Source of the DNA: Eledone cirrhosa
Taxonomy: Eukaryota
NCBI GenBank assembly: GCA_964016885.1
Contig: OZ024742.1
Location: 87,172,001-87,236,000 of the forward strand
Length of the DNA: 64,000 bases
Reading direction: 5' to 3'
Each line of letters starts with the position of its first letter. The first letter of the stretch is position 1. The position numbers and the translations under genes are program-made. The notes beneath the pieces are model-generated. The model was not told the DNA's origin and did not search any database. It was given only the letters and a program-made list of their open reading frames with translations. Below, piece after piece: positions 1,713 to 60,636 of the stretch.

Positions 1713-2765
1713 TATAAAAGAATGAATAATAACAGGTTGACATCATAAAAAAGGTAATTTATTATATGTGCATACAAATGTTTCCACGGTGGTTATACAG
1801 GCTAGTTATGCTATGTGCAAATTTATAACTATTTGCAAAACTCAATTATCAAATGTTGTGTCCACTGTATCATCAGAGCAGAATGGTTAAAATGTAAAAT
1901 GTAAATACCCTTAAGTGAGGTTATTGGGGAAGATAGAGAGAAAAGGAAAAGAGAAAAGAAGGCGAGAGGGAGAAAGATATATATATATATATATATTCAG
2001 GGGTTGGAGAAATGGGAGAGAGTGGTTTGTAGATATCTTAATCAAGATGTAGTGGTAGGGGTTTTATTATACTGGTTACTCTTAAAGCGACCACCTTAAG
2101 CGATGCGTTGATAGTCAAGGTTGGAATTATTTATTGCCACAGATGGCAGGTTCATAGATGTGGAGAGGGAGGGAGGTGGACCTAGGGCGAGGGGGAGAGA
2201 GGAGGGAATGCAGAGAGAGGGAGAGATAGAGAGGGGACAGACGAAAGCCATGGGATGGGTGTACATTGAGTTCATAATAGTAGGCTACAAATTGTACTAA
2301 GTTTCCATTCATAGTGATAAGCAGGGTATTGTCTTGTAGTGTGGGGGAAGAGAAAGTGGTTAGCTGGAAAGCAATGTTATAGTTACGGGTCGAATGTTAA
2401 GTTATTTTATAGTGAGTGAATTTAGCCTTTAGTTTGTGGTTGCAGTATAATGATCGTTCGATTCTATCATTTAGTAATTTATTTTTGAATTTTAAGATGT
2501 AAAAGAGTTCAAGGTTACATAACCTACAGTACTTCAATCCACTCCGATATGCACTAGCGCTGGAAAGTATATCCCATGTCAAGGTGAACTGTTGGTTGCG
2601 TTCACGGAGTTGCCAGGTCTTGTTGGCGAGCGTTGTCACAAAACGGAGATTAGGATGTTTAATTGAGAATCGATGACAATACCAGCGAGATTTAAAGGAG
2701 GTAGTGGTAGACCCGATGTAATACCATTTCTGGTCGTTCCATTCAACAGTGCATTGGTAAACAAT
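1712..2765 (-). mobile_element. 5'-truncated Penelope-like element: GIY-YIG endonuclease, 3'UTR and hammerhead, bounded by (TA)n
   Basis: The non-repetitive end of ORF 2397-3044 reads [38 protein letters not shown]...CRLCNLE...CNH (GIY-YIG with CCHH). It is homologous to the C-terminus of ORF 20680-22044. Both ends abut (TA)n. Confidence 0.85.
1769..1880 (-). ncRNA. type I hammerhead ribozyme fold with 85-nt stem II (partly decayed)
   Basis: Minus strand: TGCT-CTGATGA-TACAGTGG...TGCAAAT-agttataa-ATTTGCA...CCACCGTG-GAAA-CATTTG-TA^TGCA. It aligns with the ribozyme at 19605-19721. Confidence 0.6.
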
Positions 2766-4230: not shown

Positions 4231-5100
4231 GTGTGTATCTATCTATATACGTTTTAAATGTTTCGGTCTGACTTGGAACAGGCCATATCTCATTTAATAG
4301 CACTCCCATGTTTCAGATTATGATTCATACCTTAGTTATATTTTGGACACTATGGATAACGGCTAACAGATCCTTTTGAAACCAAACACTTTTTCCTTCT
4401 CTGTTGATGACTTTCTGAATATAGATTTATCTGCGAAGTTTATTATGTTGCTGACTGTGATGTTGTCAATAATGTCATTGTTATAAATAATGAAGCGTAA
4501 CGTACCCAAAACATTCCTTTGCGGTACTCCGCCACTGAACTTGGACGACATTATCGTATTCTGTCAACCACACCATGCTGGGCACTCTTTATCAGAAAAC
4601 AATTAATCCATTGTTATTGCTTTCTATAAACACCACTATTGAAACCTTACTTCAAGAGCGTGATGTGATCACCGCTTTCAAATGCCTTGCTGAACACAAG
4701 ATATATGACGCCAGTTTGTAATCCCTTACCCCAAACCATTACGATGTAATTAAGGCGATGCAGAAGCTTCGTTAGCCAGTCTTCTCGGTCAAGGAATCTA
4801 TGTTTGTTGGTGGTCAACAGATTGTTGCTTTCGAGGAAGTGAACAATTACTGATCTCTGCAGGCCCTCATATGATTTAATGGTATATGATTTAGTGAGAA
4901 TAGACGGCAATTCACTGCAATGGGCTTTCTTCCATTTCTGAAAATCGAGACACCAAACTGAACCACATATTTTTCAGCGATATAGGCGTCCCTTGACTTC
5001 CTCCACAGATTAGCGGGAAGAGATGCAAGTTGATGTTAACTCAACTTCAGGAACCTAGCAGGGTCTAGTAAGGGCCTACTGTTGCGGTGTATGTAATGTT
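4200..5100 (-). mobile_element. degraded CR1/L2/Jockey-type LINE RT fragment
   Basis: ORF pieces HFLESNNLLTTNKHRF...GVIYLVFSKAFESGDH (DFSKAFD motif) and SGGVPQRNVLGTLRFIIYNND...INFADK (GVPQGSVLGP and FADD motifs). Confidence 0.75.
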
Positions 5101-18640: not shown

Positions 18641-19364
18641 GAGATACTTGGTACAGTTAGGTATATTTGAGAAAAAGGAAAATAGTGGCATCACTTGCAG
18701 TGTTAAAATATGTATGATTCAATGTTATAATATAATATATTATTATGTTATATTATAACATTAAATCATAGTTTTTTTAACACAAATGATGTCATCATTT
18801 TCCTTTTTTTTAAATAAATATATATATATAAAGAAGCAAGTATTGCACCAAGTAAGATATAAACGTCGGGCTATGAATTTATTCTTTTTCCTGTCTATCA
18901 TAAATTGTCTACATATGGTGACTATAATATATGTTTGGTCAAATATATGCAATACTCAATTATGTATCACACTTCAGTAGCAAGCCTCTAGTAGTGGAAT
19001 TCAACTCCACACTACGATGTAGAAATCAGTATTGATATTTTATTTTAGGAAAATGTAAATAAGTTAAATATATATATATATATATATATATACACCCAAT
19101 TATATATATATATATATATATATACAATATTAAATGTCGAATATATTTATCTATAAAACTGTTTATATTGTATTTTGTCTGATGAAGGCATAGCATATTG
19201 TTAATATGATATCCCCGAAATATATATAATGAAATAAATATGGTTTTATAAATATAGTTTTCCATTTATTTAATATTGTAAATATACTCCAAATATTTGT
19301 CGAGTGCTTTTATATCAGTTATAAATATTTACTAGTTGTAACCCAACAATTTTAAATATAACTT

Positions 19365-19457
<93 letters not shown>

Positions 19458-19604
19458 TTTTTTCCGTTGTGTTGTAATATAAATATTACACACAGTAGAT
19501 TATCAGCTCACGTAGAGTTTGCTCGACGGTTCCAGTTGTAGTTCCAAAAGTAATCCGGAGAAAAATAGAAAGATTTGAATGGATACAGTTTAGTTGAAAG
19601 GAAT

Positions 19605-19721
19605 TTATTGACACGTGTTTCTATAACAGTTACATAACCTAAAACAGCTATCTACAAACTTTTAGTTATGCAGACATTCAATATTTCAATGTTATTGTTT
19701 ACTGTCATTTCATCAGAATAA
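19605..19721 (-). ncRNA. type I hammerhead ribozyme with 88-nt rod-like stem II (intact core)
   Basis: TTATT-CTGATGA-aATGACAGT...ACTGTTATa-GAAA-CACGTG-TC^AATAA. Stem I has 5 bp and stem III is palindromic. Confidence 0.8.
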
Positions 19722-20679: not shown

Positions 20680-22082
20680 TTATGTAATATTCGGCTTGTA
20701 GTGGGAAAAAAGGGTTTTAGTTCTGTGACGGCAGAATAATGTTCGTTCAATTCTGTTATTCAGCAGTTTCTTCTTGTGTGTGATTATGTAATAAATCTCA
20801 AGATTACACAATTTGCAGAAATTTTGGCTCCTGGAAAAGCTTTGGGTTTTAGCTAATTTTTCCCATTTTAGGGTAAACTTTTGATTGCTATCCCTGAGCG
20901 TCCAAGCTTTCTCTGCTAAAGTTGTTACATTTCTTTGGCTCTGGTGTTTTATTGAGTAAGAATGCCTATACAATCGAGATTTAAACGATGTTGCCGTTGA
21001 TCCCACGTAATACCACTCGTTGCCTCCGGATTTAATGGTACACTTATAAATAATATTTTTTTCCAGGCAGTTATTGCCGAGGGGGCAGTTGTCAGGATAG
21101 GTGCAGTTACAGTTGTGTACGTTGGGTTTTCTCTGGAGTAGTATTGCGGACGAACTTAGGTGTGGTTTATTTATGTTCTGTAGTGTATTGTCTACTGTTT
21201 TTTTGGGGTTCTTTGTACTTAAGTTCTTAGTGTTTTCGTTTAACCTTCTAGTATTGATCTTTTTTATGTGTTGTTCAAGGTTTAACGCTGTAGAGTATGA
21301 CAGTCTTATAGTGGTAGGGTTTAGGATTTTGTGGTATTTGTGTGATGTGGGAAAATGTCTTTTAATTATTTTAAAGAAGAGTACTGGTAAATTTGTACTA
21401 ATGGAGCTATTGTATTCGGGGTTATACCATAAGTACTCTTTGCATCGCTTTCTATTAGTTTTGTTTGTTGGTTTACTGGTGTGCATACTATGGTAGTAAG
21501 TGTGGTTTGGTGTTGTGTTATTATATCTACCTATGTGGGATTTATTTTGGGTGTTTTGATTGTTCCCATCTATGTACTCTATTTTGTTGAGGTAGCCTGC
21601 TTTACTAAGGGCGTTATCGTAGTACTCGGCGTGTTCCTTAAATACTTGTATGTTAGAAGATAGACCCGAGATTCTAAGGGAAATATTTTTAGGGATAGAT
21701 TTAATTATAGAGATGGGGTGGTTAGACCCAACATTTACGTATTTGAGATTTTCATTCAATTTATGAAACGGTTTAATCAAACCAGAGTTTAAATTGAGTG
21801 TGACATCCAGGAAGTTAACTACTTTAAGGTTGTATTCATATGTTATAGTTAGTCCTATTTCGAGTAGTAGTTTTCTTATATCTTTGCGTAGTTTTTCTAG
21901 TTTTTGGTTATTAAGGTTTTTAGCTAGGAGGAGAACATCGTCGCGGTATATTCCGCCGTGGAGATTGCTGAATTTTTCCTGGAGTCTAAAGGCGATAAAT
22001 AACCCCACAATATCAGTTATTTCCGCCGAATCGTTAGAGCCCATTGTTATGTCAAAGTTAGAGGGTCTATCTTTACGTACCC
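20680..22082 (-). CDS. 5'-truncated PLE polyprotein: RT C-terminal half, CxCx5C linker, GIY-YIG endonuclease
   Basis: FDITMGSNDSAEITDIVG, IYRDDVL, VNFLDVTL, SNHP, CNCTYPDNCPLGNNCL, IIYKC...YYVGST, CKLC...CRH. The frame is open to the stop. Confidence 0.9.
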
Positions 22083-22743
22083 AAACCCTACCACTATAAG
22101 ACTGTCATACTCTACAGCGTTAAACCTTGAACAACACATAAAAAAAAAAAAAAAAAAAAAAAAGATCAATACTAGAAGGTTAAACGAAAACACTAAGAAC
22201 TTAAGTACAAAGAACCCCCAAAAAACAGTAGACAATACACTACAGAACATAAATAAACCACACCTAAGTTCGTCCGCAATACTACTCCAGAGAAAACCCA
22301 ACGTACACAACTGTAACTGCACCTATCCTGACAACTGCCCCCTCGGCAATAACTGCCTGGAAAAAAATATTATTTATAAGTGTACCATTAAATCCGGAGG
22401 CAACGAGTGGTATTACGTGGGATCAACGGCAACATCGTTTAAATCTCGATTGTATAGGCATTCTTACTCAATAAAACACCAGAGCCAAAGAAATGTAACA
22501 ACTTTAGCAGAGAAAGCTTGGACGCTCAGGGATAGCAATCAAAAGTTTACCCTAAAATGGGAAAAATTAGCTAAAACCCAAAGCTTTTCCAGGAGCCAAA
22601 ATTTCTGCAAATTGTGTAATCTTGAGATTTATTACATAATCACACACAAGAAGAAACTGCTGAATAACAGAATTGAACGAACATTATTCTGCCGTCACAG
22701 AACTAAAACCCTTTTTTCCCACTACAAGCCGAATATTACATAA
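22083..22743 (+). pseudogene. inverted duplicate of the PLE linker and GIY-YIG region
   Basis: ORF 22417-22743 is identical to the C-terminus of ORF 20680-22044. There is a poly-A expansion at 22140-22163. Confidence 0.85.
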
Positions 22744-23012
22744 AAGAGGGACATCCCCCAACTATATAAACCTTAATCTAGTTAGAAAAATATAAAAACA
22801 ATCTCTTTTCAACATATATTAATAACCTTAAATTACCATACTAATAATGAAAAGATATGCTGATGAGAATAGGTACAAATATGCGATAATGAATGTGTCT
22901 AAAAACGTCCATAAGTATGTATATATATGTGAAAATGTATATAAATAAGTAAATATATATATATGTTTGATGTGTATAGTTAGATGTAAGTGTATTCATG
23001 TATTAAAGTGCT

Positions 23013-23061
<49 letters not shown>

Positions 23062-23062
23062 G

Positions 23063-23111
<49 letters not shown>

Positions 23112-23701
23112 GTATATGTATATATGTATATATATATGTGTATGTATGTATGTGTATATGGATGTGTATGTATGTGTATGTGTGTACACATGGACTAGAG
23201 TATGTATGTATATATGTGTGTGTCTATACGTGTGTATATATAAAGATAAGTTGAGTATGAAAATGTATACACATGAGCGCGTATGTATGTACATGAATAC
23301 ATGTGTGTATATATATGTGTATGCATGTGTATATATATGTAAGTATGAATATGTGAATTGTGAGTATATGTATTTTGTAGAGGTGTGCAAATATATTTGT
23401 GTGTGAATGCGTGGGTGAAAGAATACGTACACTTGAAAGAAAAATTTAAGTCTGAATGTTAAGTGCAAACACAAAACCAACCACGCATATCTTTACTATC
23501 TCTAATCCTTCTATAGATTTAGAAAAATAACCAATAATATATTCTATAAAAAATGTCAAAACAACAGATGGGAATCTAATTAATCACTGCCACCAAGAAT
23601 TCTCACTGCTATCGAAAAACCACTCCTTCAACTATTCTTCTAACAACTTCACCCCTTCCTCCTAATATTCTCTATAAAAACTAAATAGGTCCTCAGTAAT
23701 A

Positions 23702-23818
23702 TTATTCTGATGAAATGACAGTAAACAATAACATTGAAATATTGAATGTCTGCATAACTAAAAGTTTGTAGATAGCTGTTTTAGGTTATGTAACTGTTAT
23801 AGAAACACGAGTCAATAA
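23702..23818 (+). ncRNA. inverted-arm copy of the long-stem-II hammerhead (stem III CACGTG changed to CACGAG)
   Basis: Mirror image of 19605-19721. Confidence 0.7.
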
Positions 23819-23852
23819 ATTCCTTTCAACTAAACTGTATCCATTCAAATCT

Positions 23853-23898
<46 letters not shown>

Positions 23899-43400: not shown

Positions 43401-46400
43401 CGTCTATTTTGCCATTCTGCTGACATATGCCTTCAAAAACTTCGACATAGGTGTATACATAATTGTATGGGTGGAAAATAGTTATGCGGAAAGCTGGCTG
43501 GCTGGATAGATGGATGGCTATTTATGGTTATAGCGCATATGTGATTTGGGGTCAGCGATAGTATGTCATTACTAATAATCAACGTTTCTTTCAGATCACA
43601 TATAAATATATTTCTTCGTTTTCTTGTAATATTTGTTGTCGTCGCATATGGGTTGGAATTCTGCAAACTGTGCTGTTGATGCTTAAAAGACATATTTAAT
43701 ATCCTTCGCCTGCAGTTTTCTTTTCCTTTTGATTTACTGTTGATAATTTACTTCTTATTATTGAGCTCTTATCATCCCTGTGTACTTACAATTGTAACTT
43801 GGTTTACAATCAATTGATGTAAATATTATTATGTCAACATTTCAACTCATGCAGTTGTATTTTACGTGTATTTCGAGGAATTTGTTTTACTACATTGATG
43901 ACATTTAATTACTACCTATGCTGTACGATTTTATATACGTTCATGTTTGCAAATCAGGTTACAATGTTGTATACTGCTCCCTGTTCATCTTTCAAAACAT
44001 CATAATGAAATACTTTTGTGTTAAGCTGAAATGAAATCATTCTATATTATCTACACCTTCGGTATTCCTTTTTTTTAATGTTTGTTTTTTCATAGATTTG
44101 TTTTGTTTTCGTTCCTTACCTTTCCTTTTTTAGTGGCAAATTCTCTCATCTCTTCTAAAATAAACTATGTCTAGATTGAGATACCAATTGCTACTCTTCA
44201 CCATACACTGTAAAACATATCATTAGTAAATTAAGAGGCCCTAGACATGTAGAAATATATTTTGCAAAATATCCTTTGTCATTTTGCGCATTTCGTCTTC
44301 TTGGGGTAAGCCGGGATTAAATTAGAAGTGTATTTAAAATAAACCACATGAAATATAGTTTGCAGAAAATATTTTATATAAGAAATCACTATAAAATAAA
44401 CAAAATATGTTTAAAATTCCTCGAAGAATATGAGAACAGATTCTATAAATCAATTGTCAACATTTTCAGAATAACGAAAAGAAACACCAATAAATCAGTT
44501 TTCTATTAAAAGGGAATTGATTGTGTGAAACATGAAGAATGAGATTGCAGAGACAGAGAGCAAAGTATAAAAGGCAGCACATCACATGATAATCAATATT
44601 AAACTTCTAATAGATAGTACTAATAATATTAATCATAGTGATTATTACAATAGAGATATGACCACGCTGGAAGCTGTAGAAAACGGTAGCACAGAAATAG
44701 TGTTTATTTTGCCTCAGAAAATTGTCGAAATGCAGATATCTAATTCATACAAATAAAGTAAAAATCAGAAAAAAATCGATAAGGGACCAATCCTCTCAGT
44801 AAATTCGGGTTAATCCAAACATCATGATATTATGATGACAGGTGAAAGGAAAATGTGCCCATCCACATTCTCTAATTGTCTGTATATAATCACGTATTTA
44901 ATCACTCCAATTTCCCCCACCCACCCTCGTAATACAAACAAATCCTTCGCCCCACTCAGCATCCAATCACGCTGGCATGCGAAGTCGTCCCTGTGATCAT
45001 ATACGAACAGGAAAATTCTTGTTGGCGCTTCTTGCAGCATGCACGCAACACACCCCTACATTGTTTTTAACAGGCATTGAACAATAATAATTCAAGGTAA
45101 TAAGAACTTGGATATTCTATTGATATGATAACCTTGGCTCATACTTGGATGTATTCTAACCACGACACTATTTGTTCAACCGAATTTGTAATTATGCAAT
45201 ACACGGATATTTTATGTGTATGAAGTGTTGTAGAGTTTTGTACTTTAGTCCCGATATCAATGACTTCCTGAAATGTATTTCTTTCCTTCTCTCGTCTATG
45301 ACCAGGTTAACGTGATTCATCGTTCTATAAAAAGAAATGATTGTCGCTCCACCAATCGCATACACCTGGTACAAGTACACCTTGAGTGTCTGACTGTATT
45401 CTAAGTGCTGAACGCATGATTTCAATCGGTCAAAATATCAGGTGCTAGAGATGAGCTTGTGGGAATATATGATACTCTATCTGTGATCATGCATCGAAAA
45501 TGTCTTTGTTTCCCAGTAATTTCTGCAGATGTAGCTGTCAAACGCTTTGCCTGCGAGTCTTTAGCCACTGCAATTCAATAGATGAACGGAATTGTAATTG
45601 GCTACAAATTATTCTTCTTAAACCTTATCACGGAAAGAAATGGAAGAAGCGCTGACTCCAAATTTCTCTTGTGCTTTGTGTGAAGCAAAACAAAATGCTG
45701 GTATTACACTACCAAATCAAATTATGCAATGCCCAGCGGGCATTCTAATATATCTGCATTCATTGTCTAACACCGAATATTTCTAGCTAAATAACCTTGT
45801 TAAAACAAAATGTTTGTCTAAATGAATTTCCGTGTCTAAGAAGTACATGATCTCGTAAAATGGAGATGTTTATACATCAATAATGTCCATCAATTCGCAT
45901 GGAAATTATTCTATGAGCAGTGTGTTACACGTTACCTACAAACTCCGGTTGATTTATATTTCCCTTAGAATACAGTTATTTACCGTATTTACAAAGGATT
46001 CCTCAATTTGCAATGACATACACTGTTTCCATATTCAGACACTCACATTGTTTCGCTTCCAAAGTCATCAAAATATACAATGACGGTCCCAGCTCCCAAA
46101 AAAGCGTGGGGAGAACGTTTTGCTGACGAAAAAAGGTAGTGTTTGCACCAATGATGACACATGTTGTTTTTAAGTTTGATCCGATATTGAACGCAACCAC
46201 GGGACTTCGGAGCAATCCACGATCTGAGATTACTGACGAAATTGAGTGCTTATAGTATCCTGGAGAACCCTATAGACTGGTACAAGTTGCTTTAAACGGT
46301 TAGAGAATACAAATGTATTCCCGATTAGCTTTGTATATTCCAATGACTAAATGTTTGTGGTTACGAATTTTTGTGCCGACTGAAATCTGATAATAGCAGC

Positions 46401-48444: not shown

Positions 48445-48452
<8 letters not shown>

Positions 48453-50626
48453 TAAAATAACAGATTAAAGTTTAAGCAAAGAATCGCTGCTTTCACCCTT
48501 AACGGGATCTTCTGAAACTAACAAAGTCGATCTGTAAACGCAGAACTGGATATTTCAAAAAACGTTGCAACCGGAGGAAGACAGGAAGACGATACTTTGG
48601 TTTGTCGTGACGTTCGCTGGCAAAGAACGGGAAAAAACGAATAATACGTCATTAATAGGAGCGGTGAAAAACAATTACGCGCAAAGACAAAACCACGTTT
48701 ATGGTATAAAAGAGGTCGTAGACTAATGTTCTCGTAGGTGGTGCATAGAGACGTTATCTGGCAATGAACGAAAAAACGAAGATAATAAGTCATATGTGGA
48801 GCGTGGAGAATAATAGCACGCAAAGACAAAACCACGTAAATGGTATAGCAGAAATCGTAGACTAAAATTCTAACTAGGAGACCAAATGAATCTCCGCTAC
48901 AGAGTTAAGAACAAAGTAAATAAATACAATACAGAAGTAATAGGAACAAATAAATACATACACGCAAACAGATACGTACATACACAAGCATACGCAAAAC
49001 CTTACCATGGGTATACAAAACCACGTACATATAAATATGTGTGTGTGTGTATGCTTGTGTACAAATAAATAAATAATTATATAAACGTATATAAGTAAAT
49101 AAATACGTATATAACAAGCGCACACGCATACCTACATATAAATACACGAATGTTCGGAGTCGTAAGTCAACTAAAACAAGAAGTACACATATACACACAC
49201 CCACCATACGTACGAACCTGCACACTCACGCGGACGCAAAACTCCCGTATACACATAGCCAAACCCTAAATACCAGAATATGTAAAAATTATACGCTATA
49301 ACAGTCAAATATACGTACGAGAAGGTATACATACCTTCACAAAACATACGGGTAATATATACTTACCTATGCAAATACGTAAAGGAATAAACAAAACATA
49401 TACTTAGCTCCCACATCAAGACGTAAAATATCCACGTATAGATCGTGCTATCCGTTAGGGTATAACGTGGGGCTGTAATACAGGAAAGTTTTGTGCAATT
49501 TATGTTTACAAGCCGAAATTGTCTCAGATTCTTTGTTTAAGATGTGGTCTGTAGCGTAGAGTATTTCCAGGGCCTCAGCGGCGCAGAGGTCACATGGTCT
49601 TTTATTTCCGTTATACGATCTAGCCCTAGCTAGGATCTCCCAGTGTAACTTATATTGGGTGTGGTTGTCTTTTAGACTCCAGATATAAGGTGAAAGTGAC
49701 GTCATATTCCTTCTTAGAGGGTAACGAAAAGAATGGGTACGCATGTAAAGACGCTGCTTGAGACTATTGGCGGTTAACCCTATGTAGGCCCTACGGGACG
49801 TTGGTGTTACAACCTTACATATGTAGACAATGTTACTACAGAGGCATTTCCCGGATAGGGGCAATCAGCCCGATTCCTACAATTACAGTTAGTACTACCT
49901 AGAGGGTTGCACGTGTTCCTACGGCTAGGTAGTTTAGCTAAATTTGACACAAGCATACACACACACACACACATATTTATATGTGCGTGGTTTTGTATAC
50001 CTATGGTAAGGATTTGCGTATGCTTGTGTATGTAGGTATTTGTTTGCGTGTACGTATTTATTTGTTCCTATTACTTCTGTATTATATTTATTTACTTTGT
50101 TCTTAACTCTGTAGCGGAGATTCATTTGGTCTCCTAGTTAGAATTTTAGTCTACGATTTCTGCTATACCATTTACGTGGTTTTGTCTTTGCGTGCTATTG
50201 TTCTCCACGCTCCTCATATGACTTATTATCTTCGTTTTTTCGTTCATTGCCAGAGAACGTCTCTATGCACCACCTAAGAGAACATTAGTCTACGACCTCT
50301 TTTATACCATAAACGTTGTTTTGTCTTTGCGCGTAATTGTTTTTCACCGCTCCTATTAATGACGTATTATTCGTTTTTTCCCGACGTTACCACGAACCAA
50401 AGTATCGTCTTCCTGTCTTCCTCCGGTTGCAACCTTTTTTGAAATATCCAGTTCTGCGTTTACAGATTGACTTTGTTAGTTTCAGAAGATCCCGTTAAGG
50501 GTGAACGCAGCGATTCTTTGCTCAAACTTTAATCTGTCATTTTAATAAATATTTGCTCTACGGTTCTTATATATTTGATATATATTTTCCTTATCGAGCC
50601 CTCTTTGGATTTTACTCTTCAATTCT
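48445..50626. mobile_element. fold-back Hydra-like PLE: ~610-bp inverted arms, internal GIY-YIG, tail on right arm
   Basis: 48445-49060 is inverted relative to 49947-50552. The minus-strand frame reads NCNCRNRADCPLSGKCL...IVYICKV...AYIGLT...CDLC...CKH (49448-49893). Confidence 0.88.
50478..50528 (+). ncRNA. type I hammerhead-like fold with CAGAAGA core (mirror copy at 48469-48519, minus strand)
   Basis: Two-arm consensus AGTTT-CAGAAGA-tCCCgttaaGGGt-GAAA-GCAGcgattctTTGC-TC^AAACT. Confidence 0.55.
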
Positions 50627-56250: not shown

Positions 56251-57165
56251 CTTTATATATATATATACATACACATATATATATGTGTGTGCATATAAGT
56301 ATTTATACTTACATACTACTGTATACATATATGCATGTACGTATGCATACATATATGTATGTACGTATACATACTTATATTAAAGTATGAGTCGTACTAT
56401 GAGTGAGAAATGATATTTCATTTGTTCCATATATTTATATATATAACTATGATGGCTTTCCTGACGATTTCCTTCGAATGAAACAGTTCTAGTCTTGTAG
56501 AAGCCATTTCTATATAAAATGTCATACTCTGCTATGTATTTATTGAGTACCTTACTTACTGTGGTTATCCCCGATCGAATGCGAGGTATGCACACATATA
56601 TATATGGCTGTGTGTGTATGCGCGTGTGTGTATGTAAATAGTAAAAGATACCGTACGTTGAACAAATCTATTAGTTTAACATTCGATATTGCAGGGAATG
56701 TCTTAACGTTTCGCACTGTGGGTATTCATCACAGAATTAATTTAAAAAAGAAAGAGAAAAGAAAAGAGAAAGATCAAGGGTAGGAAGGGAAGGGGAAATG
56801 GAAAACGAAAGTGAAAAGAAAGGGGAAAAACACGTGCGTATTCATACCGCCAAATTTGCGATTTGCATGTCAAGGCGTATCTTACCCGTTAGAGAAGTTT
56901 AGAGAGAGAGGTTATCAGGGTCAAATGTGTGTATCCGCGCCTGTGGTTTTCTTTGAATGCTTGCGGGGGTTTGTGTGTGAGCGCATGCATGTGTGTTTGT
57001 ATGTGTGTTGGATTAGCGTTGGACCATGGCAGACTATTTGCTGTAAGAGTGTTGATGATGGATTGAACAACATAGTTGTATGTACTAGAATGCATACGAA
57101 TATCTACATATACATATATTCACACATAGTATCAGCCGAGAAGGGCTATGTAGAAAGGAGATGAT

Positions 57166-58884: not shown

Positions 58885-58886
58885 CT

Positions 58887-60636
<1,750 letters not shown>

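Follow-up and report, generated by a model that had tools for sequence, protein, structure and literature searches.

A conserved class of hammerhead motifs with long stem II arms in Hydra-type PLEs of Eledone cirrhosa

A hammerhead motif whose two core halves lie 88 nt apart, found in a Hydra-type PLE in the window studied here (the whole stretch of 64,000 nt from contig OZ024742.1 of Eledone cirrhosa), raises the question of whether so long a stem II arm is a genuine and conserved part of the structure and, if so, what it may do for the element that carries it. Type I hammerheads are marked by the CUGANGA and GAAA core segments, the A15.1-U16.1 pair, an NUH triplet, stem III and a paired position 10.1-11.1. 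The layout of the motif, the main copy of family 1, is the following:

19605..19721, minus strand: type I hammerhead motif with an 88-nt stem II arm
19721-19717, minus strand: stem I 5' strand, TTATT
19710..19716, minus strand: core CUGAUGA
19622..19709, minus strand: stem II arm, with A.A at its foot, followed by a basal helix of 8 bp, an A-rich internal loop, both modules and an apical hairpin
19688..19690, minus strand: module 1, 5' strand A-U-U, opposite A-G at 19640-19639
19676..19678, minus strand: module 2, 5' strand A-A-U, opposite A-G at 19649-19648
19610..19621, minus strand: GAAAC-ACGU-GUC, core and 2-bp stem III with palindromic loop (GAAAC 19621-19617, loop ACGT, GTC 19612-19610)
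19610, minus strand: predicted cut, 3' of this C
19609-19605, minus strand: stem I 3' strand, AATAA
19604..19609, minus strand: AAUAAA abutting the predicted cut and doubling as the stem I 3' strand

CTGATGA, the 88-nt spacing and stem I TTATT/AATAA, on which the original prediction was built, are all present on the minus strand, and the four arm helices that it named all occur in the minimum-energy fold of the main copy. In the ensemble fold the pairs of the basal helix have probabilities of 0.89-1.0, and the arm folds with z = -3.86 against dinucleotide shuffles (z = -1.99 for the whole 131-nt region). Both core segments, the A15.1-U16.1 pair, the NUH triplet and stem III are present in family 1, the A15.1-U16.1 and stem III pairs being invariant in 38/38 related copies, and loop III is the palindrome ACACGUGU, a palindrome being found at this place in 17 of 20 families. 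The junction is closed by a stem I of 5 bp, whose pairing is family-specific (p<=1e-5) and whose probability in the free monomer fold is 0.0. Stem II begins with an A.A mismatch instead of the 10.1-11.1 pair, a mismatch that is expected to reduce activity; this position is mismatched in 10/20 families. A canonical loop II near the core is absent from the arm of family 1.

This architecture is repeated throughout the genome. When CTGATGA followed by GAAAC-N4-GTH was searched for, with the reversed pattern as control, 5,285 matches were found at a spacing of 60-84 nt (control, 131) and 7,440 at 85-114 nt (control, 160), that is 12,725 against 291 for the combined range, an enrichment of about 40-fold; a further 11,038 matches (control, 875) carry another base at core position 7, with 72-101 nt between the halves. 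Short arms of 8-37 nt gave 3,000 matches (control, 173), and length-limited searches overlook most hammerhead-like cores in this genome, in which there are about four long arms to one short for the CTGATGA core. The existence of a conserved long-arm class, as originally proposed, is supported by this enrichment together with the pairing tests across families described below. The proposal that standard models overlook the class also holds, as no hammerhead family was found in the best 150 of 172 Rfam matches at E<=5, these 150 being only microRNA matches driven by microsatellites.

The 263 copies fetched (163 distinct) fell into 29 groups, nine of which have a Hydra-type frame upstream. For G4, G6 and G8 none of 22, 6 and 4 tries, respectively, found a protein upstream, and the follow-up query for G4 matched a different repeat. 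The arms vary from 60 to 104 nt and are linear or branched. Branched, three-way stem II arms are seen in G4 (L103, L119; 84 nt) and in G2 (L123, L248; 95 nt); the latter family is linked to a Hydra-type frame, and none was found for the former. Hydra-type families with short arms also thrive in the same genome.

The conservation of pairing was examined in 20 representatives, taken from groups with at least two distinct copies or a linked frame, with the largest group split in four and 12 singletons excluded. Although their arms are on average just 47% identical, each half of the basal helix pairs better with its own partner than with that of another family (6.45 vs 5.03 of 8 pairs; duplex energy -17.4 vs -10.5 kcal/mol), and the same is true of the distal arm (-10.3 vs -7.0) and of stem I (3.15 vs 1.99 of 5 pairs), all with p<=1e-5. 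Against shuffles of their own halves, controlled for base composition, 13 of 24 arms reached z<=-2, family 1 having -4.9, and four lay at or above 0. Furthermore, in 38 copies of one super-family aligned by sequence only, the named structure is 85% paired, compared with 31-44% when it is slid along the alignment, and the helix between the modules swaps G-C, A-U and U-A pairs while remaining 92% paired. The motif is very probably real, with a conserved arm.

The covariation check asked for with the original prediction found no significant base pair. In a tree-aware test of three family alignments, one row being left out of the first, no base pair reached E<0.05, the power being limited by the small number of independent lineages; the best value, E 0.49 in the 38-copy set, belongs to a pair outside the structure, and RNAalifold recovered just 6 pairs. 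Covariance and sequence-only models both find the window copies (with pairs, E 6e-5 for family 2 and 0.047 for family 1), and this is not counted as structural evidence because the scores of the two models are not comparable.

The second family in the window is represented by two features:

1769..1880, minus strand: family 2 hammerhead with an 85-nt arm and both modules, decayed copy
2406..2765, minus strand: remnant of the family 2 endonuclease, sharing 53% identity with family 1

The second long-arm PLE that had been read at 1769-1880 is thus real in its 85-nt spacing, but this copy is decayed, with z = +0.97 and the first stem I pair mismatched; the commonest form among 30 fetched copies of family 2 regains the pairs lost in it. 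Covariation between the two families, as first proposed, cannot be drawn from the window pair alone, since the arms are 58% identical and the second copy folds no better than shuffles; the evidence comes from the pairing seen across many families.

Other elements lie in the same window. Upstream of the family 2 remnant, at 4300-5000 (minus), there is by eye a stretch resembling a decayed LINE reverse transcriptase. A third Hydra-type family occupies 48445-50552, with a core-like segment at 48480-48520 (minus), an endonuclease at 49463-49861 and a stem II of 13 nt; it is young, with 1,443 candidates and copies 98-99% identical. Its core is degenerate: six copies inspected all have CAGAAGA and GAAAG, and a further one, L414, has CTGAAGA. 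This is a spreading family whose hammerhead is apparently impaired. Decayed hammerhead-like matches to the model occur at 45974-46083 (minus, E 0.011) and 19167-19239 (plus, E 0.056), a short-arm core of the type CTGACGA-12 nt-GAAAC, frequent genome-wide, at 56461-56490 (plus), and nested inverted and direct repeats with a 595-nt period, 99% identical, at 58886-60512.

Within the linear arms, a particular internal loop, A-N-U on the 5' strand opposite A-G on the 3' strand, occurs twice, with a distance of 11-12 nt between the two on the 5' strand. N varies, whereas the A, U, A and G do not, with one exception, a family in which G replaces the first A of loop 2; N is therefore probably the extruded base. 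Judged by a positional rule, 10/10 protein-linked families of one clade with support 1.0 (families 1, 2, G11, G12, G7, G1.1-1.4 and L404) contain both loops, as against 0/5 long-arm families that are linked to a protein and fall outside this clade (G2, G9, G28, G30 and L397), single loops being found near the tip in G9 and G30 and near the base in G8 and G16. The rule was drawn up after most families had been seen; the held-out family L404, found later, has both loops and is placed beside family 1 in the clade. Shuffling each of seven arms of the module clade yielded both loops at a frequency of 0.01 or less, whereas a loose, position-free scan was noisy and gave a weak result, with 19/24 arms against a shuffled mean of 10 and maximum of 17. 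The separation of module 1 from the core is nearly fixed (5' side, 15-22 nt; 3' side, 16-19 nt). Since the loop bases are invariant while the adjacent pairs swap, the pattern is that expected of a recognition site. The twin module is not required for mobility in general, because short-arm families thrive and other long arms lack it.

Relatives from other sources show short arms. In 77 metagenome contigs encoding relatives, a strict scan found the core in 34, with arms of 10-29 nt, and a relaxed scan by eye, added because the strict one would pass just 7/20 long-arm representatives, found it in 29 of the remaining 43, with arms of 8-25 nt, two of them doubtful. A convincing long arm was seen in none of the 77: the 63 with a core have arms of 8-29 nt, and in the 14 without one the flank is often missing. 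In trees built from genome copies, homologues and one Argonauta protein, with supports from FastTree, the long- and short-arm families outside the module clade are intermixed and their common ancestor has support 0.52; with this topology, one gain of the long arm followed by losses and several gains are both possible.

The motif lies in the end repeat of its host element, about 960 nt 3' of a 5'-truncated frame, and the element is accompanied by an inverted copy:

20680..22104, minus strand: RT-endonuclease ORF with Hydra-type motifs, truncated at the 5' end to 474 aa (full frame, 785 codons)
19455..19564, minus strand: tail of 110 nt, lying between the 3' end sites at +45 and +155 as counted from the predicted cut
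22148..23858, plus strand: this element in inverted orientation, a 5'-truncated copy whose end lies in (TA)n, 45 nt beyond its own predicted cut
23702..23818, plus strand: mirror hammerhead copy, C17 at 23813, T>A at 23810

The arms of the inverted repeat measure 1,711 nt, and (TA)n flanks it on both sides. The GUC of the mirror copy had been correctly located (C17 at 23813); the T>A change at 23810 destroys the palindrome of loop III, weakening the duplex from -11.7 to -2.0 kcal/mol. At the inversion junction, about 25 A in a row occupy 22139-22163; the A run at this place is short in the intact frame. Family 1 is very young: 150/150 scored endonuclease matches are 99-100% identical, many of them inside 785-codon frames, and the 3' half of the core has 3,012 exact genomic copies. 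Tandem units have a period of 3,597 nt, the predicted cut falling 209 nt ahead of the next ATG. The protein of family 1 has a length of 773 aa.

The RWK, DKT, CxCx5C, CxxC and CxH motifs that mark the Hydra clade (Craig et al., PMC8557442) are all present, which upholds the assignment of the element to Hydra-type PLEs. RVRWK and ADKTS are found in the N-terminal RT region of the full frame, and, as read by eye, CNCTYPDNC as the CxCx5C linker with CKLC (CxxC) and CRH (CxH) in a C-terminal GIY-YIG-like endonuclease. Pfam assigned no family to the 474-aa piece. Insertion at (TA)n, tandem and inverted copies and a tail also agree with the clade; the unit exceeds the trend of less than 3 kb, which is descriptive and not diagnostic, because of a 3' region of 1 kb. 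Of the two named proteins among at least 120 homologues one is from Argonauta; it clusters in the tree with families of the present genome, and contigs of four sequencing runs contained near-identical copies only.

The original prediction had suggested the arm as a possible priming signal, and the ends of the inserted copies speak against this. Family 1 copies end at +45 from the cut in 23/44 cases and at +155 in 18/44, with three nearby or between and none of the 44 at the predicted cut; as these positions lie on the opposite side of the cut from the arm, the arm is ruled out as the site of priming. From the distribution of these ends we infer that reverse transcription begins 3' of the bond to be cut, its template being RNA that is uncut or has been re-joined. 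At the other end, five of 16 copies without C17 start exactly at the cut, and 5' breaks occur at every neighbouring position as well. Breaks at the cut or one base beyond were counted in 4/25 scored loci and, by eye, in 16/80 (93 rows minus 13 indels), most of them joining (TA)n by way of a matching TAT. In 12/20 families A[AT]TAAA is found no more than 24 nt past the cut, and in 0/20 ahead of the core, which suggests that cutting may compete with polyadenylation.

Two kinds of rearranged copies were seen in addition. In L439, L440, L441 and L184, belonging to several families, head-to-head copies are joined 11-15 nt upstream of the core, which suggests that the RNA may preferentially begin, or be brought to a stop, close to these junctions. 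L536/L537 are perfect fold-back insertions turning at the loop III palindrome ACACGTGT.

Much of this architecture is familiar. In Hydra-clade PLEs the hammerheads likewise sit near the 3' end and have a type I core, with stems I and III that are short and a stem II whose base is often mismatched, and the elements insert at (TA)n and encode the same protein motifs (Craig et al. 2021, PMC8557442); a U.U at that base is frequent among those described and is tolerated (PMC3088659). The difference lies in the arm: the relaxed core descriptor of that study permitted 7-17 nt between the core halves, and in the Hydra rows of its File S2 26/26 have about 26 nt or less (22 nt in Hydra-1_oBim, counted by eye), whereas here there are 60-104 nt and a twin-loop module. 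The unit is also longer, 3.6 kb instead of less than 3 kb, as is the tail, 110 nt instead of 30-40 (PMC8557442). Minimal, dimer-type PLE hammerheads share with the present motif a weak palindromic stem III, a stem I of 4-5 bp and a low expected activity as monomers, but their 'large' helix II means 6-8 bp with a conserved G10.1-C11.1, in contrast to the A.A mismatch and rod of about 30 pairs seen here (Cervera and de la Pena 2014, PMC4209133). An enlarged stem II of 9 bp with a 34-nt loop, flagged as deviating, is listed for another PLE, PLE-X1_sMoe of the spike moss, which is of a different clade and a single family, with about 52 nt and no conserved module in the table (PMC8557442 File S2). 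In the literature searched, which may have gaps, no description of PLE hammerheads with stem II arms of 60-100 nt was found, the 52-nt spike-moss case being the nearest.

A functional parallel is offered by PAc, a Poseidon element of the anole (Frangieh et al. 2024, PMC11167929), whose hammerhead cuts only with the protein, predicted to be dimeric, and which has two internal RT start sites defining the tail and uses uncut RNA as template. Its protein-binding region lies inside the ORF, cleavage is dispensable and hammerhead mutants were still inserted; its hammerhead overlaps the ORF start, and no long arm is described in the available text, unlike the 88-nt arm found here.

The reading that we prefer, with a probability of roughly 0.45, is that the arm is a selected hairpin, at which the element's own RT-endonuclease likely docks, in a motif that is predicted to cut only as a pair. 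Tandem units, with their period of 3,597 nt, would be transcribed through the repeat, and the arm would fold first, keeping CUGAUGA beside GAAA. The protein, perhaps dimeric, would bind the two loops about one helical turn apart, and dimer binding fits because the loops are alike and so spaced; the docked protein would thereby be loaded just upstream of the internal RT start sites at +45 and +155. Cutting would be slow and require two copies paired through ACACGUGU, probably with assistance from the protein, so that most inserted copies would derive from uncut or re-joined RNA; where it took place, it would remove the adjacent AAUAAA and open the RNA of the next unit 209 nt ahead of its ATG. 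Docking is made less likely by the anole element, because there binding maps inside the ORF and hammerhead mutants still insert. A more elaborate version, to which we would give about one chance in four, is that of a natural protein-sensing ribozyme in a cephalopod-type Penelope lineage, in which a two-site stem II aptamer for an RT-endonuclease dimer would load the enzyme for internal priming and switch between a polyadenylated message and a cleaved form.

Other explanations of the arm compete with the docking site. The arm and its loops may instead tune the ribozyme itself through folding or tertiary contacts to stem I or to a partner hammerhead, no protein being involved; a helper would be needed because stem I has just 3-5 bp and is absent alone, module 1 stands at a near-fixed distance from the core, and natural hammerheads do use contacts between stems I and II (PMC3088659). 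We nevertheless regard this as doubtful, as the usual contacts are a few bp from the core and the modules 15-30 nt off, and a conserved partner for such a contact upstream of stem I was not seen, the identity of this flank (0.49-0.50) being near background. Somewhat less likely still is the binding of a host factor for export, translation, stability or 3'-end processing, by which the arm would either decide between self-cleavage and polyadenylation at the adjacent AAUAAA or act as a leader element of the ORF downstream. It would account for the A[AT]TAAA that follows the cut, in family 1 as a strand of stem I, and for the appearance of long arms in the present host lineage only, as compared with the metagenome relatives scanned, and viral 5'-leader hammerheads are known to influence translation (PMC13725137); AAUAAA follows short-arm hammerheads too, however, and so leaves the arm unexplained.

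That the arm is a tolerated insertion, selected only as a fold-back closing the core and with shared loops inherited but functionless, seems improbable. Such a history is compatible with the wide variation of the arms in length and branching, with the interspersion of short-arm relatives in the tree and with the absence of any pair passing the tree-aware test; it sits poorly with loop bases that stay constant although the proteins are about 40-55% identical, the flanks unalignable and the adjacent pairs swapped, and a neutral insert would more simply shrink. Use of a nearer register, in which the 4-bp AAUG/CAUU helix present in family 1 is followed by GAAA, or a chance match, would be very surprising. 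This short register was rejected, its ensemble probability being 0.0 and its constrained energy -13.5 against -21.1 kcal/mol, 7.6 kcal/mol less favourable than the long one and without stem I, while any internal GAAA is found in just 6/20 arms; chance is opposed by the 40-fold enrichment of the long spacing.

The long-arm hammerhead of Eledone cirrhosa is a real, abundant and lineage-restricted structural variant of the known pairing between ribozyme and retrotransposon, and it bears on the role of hammerheads in PLEs and on the recognition of RNA by a telomerase-related RT. The family offers a direct experimental handle, being young, with copies that are identical, frames of 785 codons that are intact and an RNA module that is both compact and specific to one clade; this handle comprises one protein, one RNA of 117 nt and defined loop mutants, and the short-arm relatives found in this genome can serve as controls.
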